From: a virus
Lineage: Duplodnaviria; Heunggongvirae; Uroviricota; Caudoviricetes
Strand: one strand, 5' to 3'
Virus record (IMG/VR): IMGVR_UViG_3300042256_000013
Coordinates: 1 to 64,000 of that record
Length of the DNA: 64,000 nucleotides
Under the pieces are notes generated by a model, which was not told the origin of the DNA, searched no databases, and saw only the letters and a program-made list of their open reading frames with translations. Position 1 is the stretch's first letter. Every line of letters begins with the position of its first letter. The position numbers were made by a program, and so were the translations under genes. Below are positions 18,770-19,445 of this stretch, piece after piece.

Positions 18770-19057
18770 TACTGGATATTTGTACAGTACTGTACATCTA
18801 TACATATACACATGGGTGCATCATGCGTGAACTTTAGTTACAACATCGTATTATAATTTCTTTCGAATATAGTCCAGTACTTAAATGATTTCGAGTACTT
18901 TTCAGATTTAGGCTGGAGGGTCAAAGGTACTCCAAAATTTATAGAATCCAGATTTAGGATAGAGTACTTTTCAGATTTTAGTTGATCGATGTTCTGGATT
19001 TTTCAGTACTGATATTTTCGTTGGACTTCAGGAACAGATATAGCGGAAGGGGGTTTC

Positions 19058-19177
19058 AGTACTGGATAGTACTGGATAGTACTGGATAGTACTGGATAGT
19101 ACTGGATAGTACTGGATAGTACTGGATAGTACTGGATAGTACTGGATAGTACTGGATAGTACTGGATAGTACTGAAT
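19058..19177. repeat. perfect tandem repeat (AGTACTGGAT) x 11 plus one variant unit (AGTACTGAAT)
   Basis: 10-bp period puts every AGTACT palindrome on one DNA face; flanked by more AGTACT-containing repeats from 18880 to 19280. Confidence 0.95.
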
Positions 19178-19445
19178 CAATGTTATACATAGCTTGACTG
19201 TACTGTACCGTATATGTTAGAGTACTTGTCAGTACTGGATACTTATACATAATGTACATTCTTACAGTACTGTATATAAAACCATACAATTTCGGAAACG
19301 CTATTTCAGGCAGTTTGAATCCTTTCGATATCGAATATCTCCAGGAATCAAACTATACAATTCATCTTAGTATAGAGTGTTCTACGGGCTTATAGGGGGT
19401 AAATATCTATATTGGTACAATTTTTAATTACATAAGGAGAAAGGT

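Follow-up and report, generated by a model that had tools for sequence, protein, structure and literature searches.

A hypervariable array of AGTACT repeats beside a predicted genome terminus of a RaK2/GAP32-like jumbo phage

Introduction

Short repeats lie beside the terminase cut in several phages, among them the R sites of lambda cosB, the hexamer repeats of P1 pac and the phased boxes of SPP1 pacL, and DNA bending or wrapping has been invoked for them. Arrays of short repeats, SRL and SRR, also reportedly flank the terminal repetition of phages T7 and T3; our literature search brought no confirmation of this. In phage T5, a 1.2-kb untranslated repeat region overruns the inner border of the long terminal repeat (LTR) by 270 bp and carries nine DRD repeats (bioRxiv 10.1101/866236). 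The RaK2/GAP32-like jumbo phages have T4-like large terminases yet possess precise terminal repeats of 17-22 kb. The direct terminal repeat (DTR) is 22,456 bp long in CBB, as judged from doubled read depth and checked by pulsed-field gel electrophoresis (PMC5259590), 19,736 bp in fENko-Kae01 (PMC11218385) and 17,581 bp in XbC2, whose record has been re-oriented to open at the DTR (PMC11273794); the latter two were mapped with PhageTerm. Here, we describe a tandem array of AGTACT-bearing 10-bp units in a 64,000-nucleotide stretch of viral DNA (positions 1 to 64,000 of IMG/VR record IMGVR_UViG_3300042256_000013; 'the window' in what follows), and compare its surroundings with the ends of these relatives.

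The window is 100% identical to a 371,104-bp JGI metagenome contig, its source, and by its matches it is that of a RaK2/GAP32-like jumbo phage. Erwinia phage Kaldavass and Xanthomonas phage XbC2 both match the region at 82% identity, and there are weaker matches to jumbo phages of 350-380 kb from Yersinia, Serratia, Erwinia, Pectobacterium, Cronobacter, Salmonella, Klebsiella and Escherichia. Overall, the comparison places the array just outside a predicted genome terminus, at a spot where tandem arrays of differing units recur in several genera and where the length of the surrounding stretch changes in steps of 10 bp.

The array and its position

Tandem Repeats Finder (TRF), run on the 64-kb window, returns one array at 19058-19174 with a period of 10 bp, 11.7 copies and 100% matches, and its score of 234 compares with 86 for the runner-up. 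Direct reading and a repeat search give eleven exact AGTACTGGAT units (19058-19167), ended by a variant unit, AGTACTGAAT (19168-19177), whose sequence is that of the single conserved site of the relatives (AGTACTGAAC/T). An earlier note, written from the letters of the window, had described this arrangement correctly, as it had the flanking AGTACT repeats: GAGTACTTTTCAGATTT is present as two exact copies (18893-18909 and 18962-18978, both 100% in the repeat search) that flank a conserved block and are both kept in Kaldavass, XbC2 and fENko-Kae01, and CAGTACTGATATT is located at 19004. The note had also called the region free of open reading frames (ORFs), which is right as far as credible genes are concerned. 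Mechanical ORFs do cross the array, for example at 19056-19289 on the minus strand, and as relatives without the array have nothing corresponding to them, coding potential was dismissed. The placing of all palindromes on one face of the DNA is correct approximately: a 10.0-bp period drifts at 10.5 bp per turn, and standard B-DNA geometry would give a rotation of ~17 degrees per unit and ~190 degrees over the whole array in relaxed DNA. A CRISPR array was ruled out, as the 10-bp units stand head to tail without spacers, whereas CRISPR repeats are 23-50 bp long and alternate with unique spacers. Folded as a single strand, the array forms many equivalent hairpins (-24.6 versus -9.3 kcal/mol in shuffles, z = -6.8), and it is thus DNA of the kind that slips.

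The array starts 17 bp outside what is predicted to be the inner DTR boundary. In CBB, fENko-Kae01 and XbC2 the DTRs all end at the same base, GATA^TAG[CT]GGAAGGGG(G) in the orientation of the window (^, boundary), with AGTACTG(A/G)A following 2-6 bp after this box, and the same base opens or ends six more records (Serratia BF, pEa_SNUABM_44, 47, 50 and 19, and Munch). Positions 19029-19053 of the window agree with the boundaries of CBB, fENko-Kae01 and XbC2 at every base of the motif. At the same motif position, the predicted physical terminus falls between 19040 and 19041, with the cut reading ...CAGGAACAGATA^TAGCGG...; CAGGAACAGATA, ending at 19040, is joined to the TAGCGGAAGGGGG box on the plus strand (19041-19053), which is followed by TTTC and then by the array. 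The box is the only match in the 64 kb at up to two mismatches. It is near-invariant over three phage groups, and in the form TAG[CT]GG[AC]AGGGG it stands at the junction of 21 related phages. A partial second cut-site box, GCGGAAGGGG, agreeing at 10/13 positions, is seen at 18234-18243, ~800 bp inside the DTR.

The opposite end of the repeat can also be recognised. The far DTR boundary of XbC2, CBB and fENko-Kae01 reads ...AAGGCCAGTnAnGCnT^TAGC...; the CBB/fENko form of this motif has no match within the window and is located just beyond its left end, where the source contig carries AAAGGCCAGTAATGCT^TAGCGGCC 87 bp to the left of position 1. The two boundary motifs are thereby 19,127 bp apart, a DTR-sized distance when set against the 17.6-22.5 kb of the relatives. 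The DTR of this phage is thus predicted, by homology to the mapped ends of the relatives, to be ~19,127 bp long, the window holding all but its first 87 bp (1-19040, with small early-type genes on the minus strand). The record of Kaldavass, whose annotation suggested an arbitrary opening, was found to start exactly at the far DTR boundary, and the idea of an arbitrary opening was given up. TAGC stands immediately outside the repeat at both boundaries (A^TAGCGG and T^TAGCG/C) in inverted orientation, which suggests that a single nuclease specificity acts on opposite strands at the two ends. No small terminase subunit was recognised in XbC2, whose paper alone among those of the relatives takes up the matter (PMC11273794). 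For specific recognition of the terminus, the strongest candidates are two elements: the invariant TAGCGGAAGGGGG box and, inside the DTR tip, a conserved block described below.

A different terminus, ...CCTCTGCCTACT^TTAGTGAC, is seen in the more distant Asteriusvirus Escherichia phage vB_Ec-M-J (loci L006, 1650-1690, and L008), whose DTR carries, ~80 bp in, a repeat of 10-bp period, (T)GATTACTTTT x 3; TGATTAC recurs outside this DTR. A resemblance of the DTR tip (TATCTGTT) to the T7 class II pause signal was also weighed, and abandoned because CBB and fENko-Kae01 do not conserve the sequence.

Recurrence and instability among relatives

The first site after the box is AGTACTGAAY in Kaldavass, CBB, GAP32, fENko-Kae01 and fHe-Yen9-04, and it is this site that appears in multiplied form in the window. 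At the homologous place, Kaldavass has a lone AGTACTGAAC, XbC2 has AGTACTGGTAC-AGTACT, and hence two AGTACT sites, and CBB, fENko-Kae01 and Munch have one site with a second 21-23 bp further on. Two tandem AGTACTGGAT units occur in no other sequence of IMG/VR, and a metagenome search for such tandem units returned nine sequences, all unrelated, with different flanks and a low AGTACT density. A contig from another sample (L105) is identical to the window over 5.2 kb, with 0 mismatches, except that it holds nine units against eleven. Perfect head-to-tail units that differ in number between near-identical genomes, here in short-read assemblies, define a variable-number tandem repeat (VNTR).

Arrays made of other units occupy the same spot elsewhere. 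Just outside the boundary, fHe-Yen9-04 has AGTACTCAATTATACTTGAT as a 20-bp unit repeated 8.3 times, whereas fHe-Yen9-03, of the same species, has one copy of this unit and AGTACT spacings of 20, 20, 20 and 10 bp; within the species, then, the 20-bp unit ranges from 1 to ~8 copies. In pEa_SNUABM_44, GTACTAGAAT units keep a 10-bp register over ~90 bp, and Serratia BF and pEa_SNUABM_47, 50 and 19, all of the same species, have fewer units, the spacers within this species being 136, 156 and 216 bp long. GAP32 carries two 10-bp units, and IMG/VR contigs carry a 20-bp unit three times, a 20-bp unit twice together with a three-unit 10-bp repeat, or a 10-bp unit, GTAGCTTACC, 3.6 times without AGTACT. 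The earlier note had proposed to check whether copy number varies among related genomes; it does, from one site in Kaldavass and two in XbC2 to the nine units of the other contig, with other units elsewhere. Judged from these comparisons, the array has expanded recently, in this lineage alone, from the conserved AGTACTGRAY site that comes first after the TAGCGGAAGGGGG box, and its copy number is unstable; the junction is a recurrent home, across several genera, of tandem arrays with a period of 10 or 20 bp.

A length rule between box and anchor

Downstream of the array lies a second conserved element, the motif TTGAATCCTTTCGATA (19315-19330), and the distance to it from the boundary, measured from the T of TAGCGG, varies in a restricted manner. 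In the window this stretch runs from 19041 to 19317. Fifteen phages have distances of 136, 146, 156, 166, 176, 186, 216, 276 or 286 bp, all of them 6 modulo 10. The rule was put to a prospective test on six further phages and held, the distances being 156, 136, 136, 136, 136 and 136 bp; two of the six bring new sequence arrangements, and the others repeat known sequences. With the nine-unit contig, at 256 bp, the distance is 10n+6 bp in 22/22 sequences (21 phages and this contig), which represent ten distinct lengths from 136 to 286 bp.

Gain and loss of whole units would account for the large steps in length. The first AGTACT after the box is found at offsets of +14 to +27 among the phages, and such shifts are made good further along: it lies at +18 and is followed by 52 bp in Kaldavass, and at +19 followed by 21+30 bp in IMGVR_3300031414, both giving a total of 70, while +16 followed by 11+53 bp in XbC2 and +17 followed by 21+42 bp in CBB both give 80. 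These compensated indels argue for selection on the register between box and anchor. As a control, the distance from the conserved block to the boundary inside the DTR was measured; it is 115, 128, 133, 134 or 156 bp (residues 5, 8, 3, 4 and 6) and is not quantised; single-base indels are found in this control stretch. The rule is therefore confined to the array-bearing stretch.

AGTACT across the genome: promoters and terminators

The hexamer of the array is a property of the whole window. AGTACT occurs 279 times in the 64 kb, compared with 18.4 +/- 4.2 in dinucleotide-preserving shuffles (~15-fold), and is the most over-represented hexamer, at 13 times the zero-order expectation; among the related loci L001-L013 the observed-to-expected ratio is 14-35, with one exception. 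By a crude ORF mask its density is 7.7/kb in non-coding and 3.5/kb in coding DNA, where ~0.33/kb would be expected. Sites are found at ~6/kb in the first 28 kb and ~2.8/kb beyond, the window averaging one per 230 bp, and CAGTACTG is the preferred context, with C at -1 and G at +6. Sites stand 18, 20 or 21 bp apart more often than expected, and spacings of 6-17 bp are nearly absent except for 10.

The 20/21-bp pairs in intergenic DNA of the DTR spell out promoters of sigma-70 type: on the minus (coding) strand they read AGTAC-TTGCAA-N10-AGTACT-T-TATAAT, one AGTACT directly abutting the -35 element and another the -10. A permissive pattern search finds ~16 such minus-strand promoters in the DTR, with AGTAC next to a TTGNNN -35 element (typically TTGCAA), a 16-17-nt spacer and a TATAAT-like -10 element, seven of them with a second AGTACT abutting the -10; they lie at 4046, 6915, 8126, 10766, 11264, 13624 and 14280, with about nine more between 346 and 17749. 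The layout looks like an operator or activator arrangement. At least some of the 18-bp pairs, on the other hand, are hairpin stems, AGTACTGG...CCAGTACT, as at 10126-10149, 10108-10131 and 18768-18791. The authors of the CBB study give the homologous element as a rho-independent terminator (Torf26), and the array unit AGTACTGGAT is identical to one arm of an AGTACT stem of this type. The simplest reading of the motif is that AGTACT would be the recognition hexamer of a clade-specific DNA-binding protein.

Other features around the junction

Genes lie on the minus strand to the left of ~19 kb and on the plus strand to the right, and the GC skew flips alongside; the ~2 kb around the boundary (17.3-19.4 kb) hold many repeats and no conserved genes. 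Inside the DTR tip, 115 bp from the boundary, is the conserved non-coding block GGTACTCCAAAATTT...GATTTAGGATAGAGTACT (18926-18968), which phages of Escherichia, Salmonella, Klebsiella, Yersinia, Pectobacterium and Cronobacter share at 83-90% identity despite diverged flanks and which is invariant in the core of alignment A1. It lies 115-156 bp from the boundary in the aligned box-bearing phages and ~205-252 bp inside the mapped terminus of the Asteriusvirus record. Placed like cosB, but within the packaged end, the block is a candidate for a binding site. Further inward, at 18708-18736 on the minus strand, a sigma-70-like promoter (TTGACG-17-TATTAT, scan score 10/12) faces inward from the tip as the first early promoter from the genome end; its CGTCAA and TATAAT-like elements are, by eye, kept in Kaldavass, XbC2, CBB and fHe-Yen9-04.

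On the other side of the boundary, a promoter scan finds a rightward sigma-70-like promoter on the plus strand at 19261-19290 (CTTACA-18-TACAAT), with an AGTACT overlapping its -35 element (TTACAGTACTG); it is conserved as TTACAGTACTGTATATTAATACATAGAAT in Kaldavass, XbC2 and CBB (alignment A2). The anchor TTGAATCCTTTCGATA lies within an inverted repeat, GTTTGAATCC...GGAATCAAAC (19313-19352), and was recognised by invariant columns in A2 and also in 13 phages. Its own positions are invariant at 14/16 across 12 sequences of three phage groups, and CTACAGGA nearby is largely conserved. Most phages have GTTTGA...TCAAAC as the arms of the repeat, the fENko-like group CAGGTGT...ACACCTG. RNAalifold found no common long stem around the anchor, the pairing register of the arms differing by 1 nt between groups, and a conserved hairpin was accordingly set aside as unproven. 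A T4-late-promoter-like GTAAATA (19399-19405, plus strand) lies within GGGGGTAAATAT (GGGGGTAAATATC, 19395-19407), ~40 bp upstream of the first gene of the MLPFP cassette, where GGGTAAATA is conserved in Kaldavass, CBB, fHe-Yen9-04 and fENko-Kae01. Its resemblance to the T4-type late promoter (TATAAATA) may point to a similar function, and ATAAATA has been predicted as the late promoter of CBB (PMC5259590). The cassette itself (19446-26647, plus strand) encodes paralogous proteins with, according to Pfam, RCC1-like propeller and ConA-like lectin (Laminin_G_3) domains; their counterparts in relatives are annotated as RCC1-repeat, kelch-like or structural proteins.

The DTR contains further repeats. 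A degenerate array of ~16 units with an 8-bp period (nnnTCTAn, e.g. CCATCTAG), for which TRF also gives periods of 16 and 32, occupies non-coding DNA at 18271-18397, ~650-770 bp inside the tip. A perfect 10-bp inverted repeat with a 38-nt loop, GGGTGGCAAG...CTTGCCACCC, lies at 18010-18067, and two independent metagenome contigs (L106 and L110) both stop at 18079, next to it. An Rfam search over 17200-19500 found no known RNA family, the only matches being sub-threshold, microRNA-like and on both strands of this palindrome (18000-18076). Members of a dispersed repeat family of ~30-125 bp are found at 3118-3189, 4523-4688, 5391-5417, 11645-11770, 12805-12958, 14750-14782, 15268-15356 and 18050-18111; every copy matches positions 1218-1344 of the Kaldavass record at 77-93%, and they are probably reiterated intergenic promoter or terminator modules.

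Discussion

The explanation that we favour, tentatively and with a little less than even confidence, is that the array is a register-preserving expansion within a cis-acting nucleoprotein module of the concatemer junction that aids end formation, and that its copy number as such is not critical. The array would adjoin the point at which cleavage of replicated concatemers creates one of the physical genome ends, and the stretch from the box to TTGAATCCTTTCGATA would form the module. AGTACT sites phased at 10 or 20 bp would be bound cooperatively, and the bound sites may fix the geometry of the box for cleavage at GATA^TAGC and for formation of the DTR end, an accessory role like that of the sites flanking cosB or pac. 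The 12-unit array could have arisen by replication slippage, or by out-of-register recombination or strand invasion next to the break, with the register kept. The earlier note had offered a packaging site among its guesses, and in this respect its sense of place was good, as the array adjoins the predicted cut and arrays recur there. What is conserved at the junction, however, is the box and the first AGTACTGRAY site rather than the array, which is not a conserved requirement; nor can AGTACT be a dedicated pac element, since the motif is spread genome-wide and tied to promoters and terminators.

It is important to point out that several observations weigh against this explanation. The closest relatives manage with one or two sites, and on that comparison the array cannot be a requirement for packaging. 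The boundary in this phage is placed by motif homology to termini mapped in relatives, the other DTR boundary has no AGTACT array, and binding sites outside the packaged end would be unusual for known terminase recognition. Both contigs behind the difference between nine and eleven units are short-read metagenome assemblies, and an assembly error could account for it. The AGTACT-binding protein is hypothetical. Finally, a strict 10.0-bp step loses rotational phase on relaxed B-DNA over 100-150 bp, so helical phasing alone cannot explain the long arrays; the alternatives are that a protein lattice or wrap imposes a 10-bp register on the stretch, or that the longest arrays would be departures that are tolerated. 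A more far-reaching version, which we regard as unlikely, holds that AGTACT, as the target of a DNA-binding protein peculiar to the clade, marks RaK2-like DNA genome-wide, in promoters, terminators and coding sequence alike, and, at the junction, polymerises in a strict 10-bp register between the terminase cleavage box TAGCGGAAGGGGG and TTGAATCCTTTCGATA as an end-forming ruler or scaffold. Such a lattice would tolerate hypervariable arrays because the register stays.

The most serious rival, possible though on the whole improbable, is that the array is functionless, a hypervariable neutral minisatellite left behind by slippage or out-of-register recombination beside a site-specific break. The perfect identity of the units indicates a very recent origin, nine and eleven copies are found in otherwise identical contigs, the nearest species have one or two sites, differences within species are large, and the array is found in no related sequence of IMG/VR or the metagenomes searched. 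The single strand can adopt many alternative hairpins, and the GTAGCTTACC array of one relative lacks AGTACT altogether. The periods of 10 and 20 bp would then stem from duplication between existing AGTACT sites, or only steps of 10 bp would be tolerated. Neutrality is harder to reconcile with arrays or phased sites at the same spot in at least three groups, whose units differ but whose period is invariably 10 or 20 bp, and with spacer indels that are compensated to 10n+6 while the neighbouring non-coding DNA is unquantised, which points to selection on the module that contains the array. Alternatively, the array could serve transcriptional control as an operator-like cluster that recruits, titrates or nucleates a factor of the early promoters, acting on the rightward promoter and the late RCC1-like cassette or insulating the cassette from the DTR. 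AGTACT does abut the -35 and -10 elements of the ~16 early promoters and overlaps the -35 of the promoter at 19261-19290, the array lies ~90-200 bp upstream of the latter, and the hexamer is twice as dense in non-coding as in coding DNA. We nevertheless consider this role distinctly unlikely: the recurrent arrays start at the first site after the box and not at a set distance from the promoter, the promoter stays unchanged while the copies number anywhere from 1 to 12, and TRF finds no other strong array upstream of the AGTACT promoters in the window.

Two further possibilities carry far less weight. An injection stop as in T5, a pause in DNA entry at the inner DTR border of which the array would be part, is suggested by the classification of XbC2 by PhageTerm as having long ends of T5 type (PMC11273794), and an untranslated, repeat-dense region at the inner border like that of T5 is present here, in the ~2 kb without conserved genes. 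The early promoters near the DTR tip, however, face inward from it, suggesting that the genome end formed by the tip enters first; the array would then be at the far end of the molecule, and lying outside the DTR it is present once per genome. Two-step injection is unreported for these phages in the literature covered, and DnaA boxes are depleted and unclustered in the window (three against twelve expected). We therefore hold an injection stop to be very improbable. The same depletion counts against the DnaA-box models of an origin as well as of a T5-like stop, and the earlier note's suggestion of an origin or a centromere-like site is the least credible of all. Tandem, helically spaced short repeats in intergenic DNA would suit iterons or a partition site, and the cumulative GC skew has a local minimum near 19 kb. 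This minimum is accounted for by the switch from minus-strand to plus-strand genes, with which the flip coincides, and the skew flips back with gene orientation at ~27-28 kb; it was discarded as an origin signal. Iterons are typically 17-22 bp long, and the 10-bp units here are shorter. No initiator gene lies nearby, partition genes are absent from the annotations of the relatives' flanking genes, and close relatives lack the array.

An expansion within a junction module thus remains our preferred reading, and its wider interest lies less in the array, which is a dispensable and unstable expansion, than in what surrounds it. The candidate cut site, defined to the base, the 10n+6 rule and the AGTACT motif shared across the clade count for more. 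The locus offers a candidate cut, GATA^TAGCGGAAGGGGG, a matching ^TAGC at the other boundary, a conserved block at the DTR tip and an outside module quantised in 10-bp steps, and the 13-35-fold enrichment of the hexamer across the clade, in early promoters and terminators, implies a sequence-specific factor. In the open-access literature we found no description of the cut site, the length rule or the AGTACT motif in jumbo phages. With its variable copy number, the array also serves as a natural marker of strains, and it calls for care when these genomes are assembled and oriented.

Comparison with known systems

Sites such as lambda cosB, P1 pac and SPP1 pacL have a fixed copy number and spacing and are required, whereas the junction described here has 1 to 12 copies of a motif found genome-wide, on the side of the cut that lies outside that packaged end. 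Head-to-tail palindrome units that could bind dimers cooperatively are also a feature of the metbox arrays of MetJ, which consist of 2-5 copies of an 8-bp unit at promoters; here, a 6-bp palindrome within a 10-bp unit is repeated up to 12 times at a predicted genome terminus, and the binder is hypothetical.

Repeat Region 3 of T5 (bioRxiv 10.1101/866236) is alike in belonging to a long DTR with small early genes, in being repeat-dense and untranslated, in straddling the inner border with an overrun into unique DNA, and in its run of about nine direct repeats. The T5 region is characterised by paired DnaA boxes, the large inverted repeats IRD'/IRC' and a highly conserved order, whereas the repeats here are AGTACT-based, hypervariable among relatives and different in kind, with no DnaA-box cluster and no sequence homology to T5.

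The array fits best among the repeat arrays that flank terminal repeats. It differs from pac and cos sites in conservation, and from iteron origins and the T5 stop in their defining boxes. As in T7 and T3, short direct repeats stand just outside a terminal repeat at the concatemer junction; their function in T7 is unproven and presumed to be concatemer processing. The T7 units are ~7 bp long, imperfect, irregularly spaced, conserved and placed on both sides of a 160-bp repeat, in contrast with the 10- or 20-bp units here, which are often perfect, differ widely in number and flank a 19-kb repeat on a single side. That variability is shared with the VNTR and contingency loci of bacteria, perfect short units whose number differs between otherwise identical genomes by slippage, and the array falls within the definition of a VNTR. 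Contingency repeats switch genes through changes in reading frame or promoter spacing, whereas the changes seen at this junction keep the 10-bp register and would tend to preserve function.

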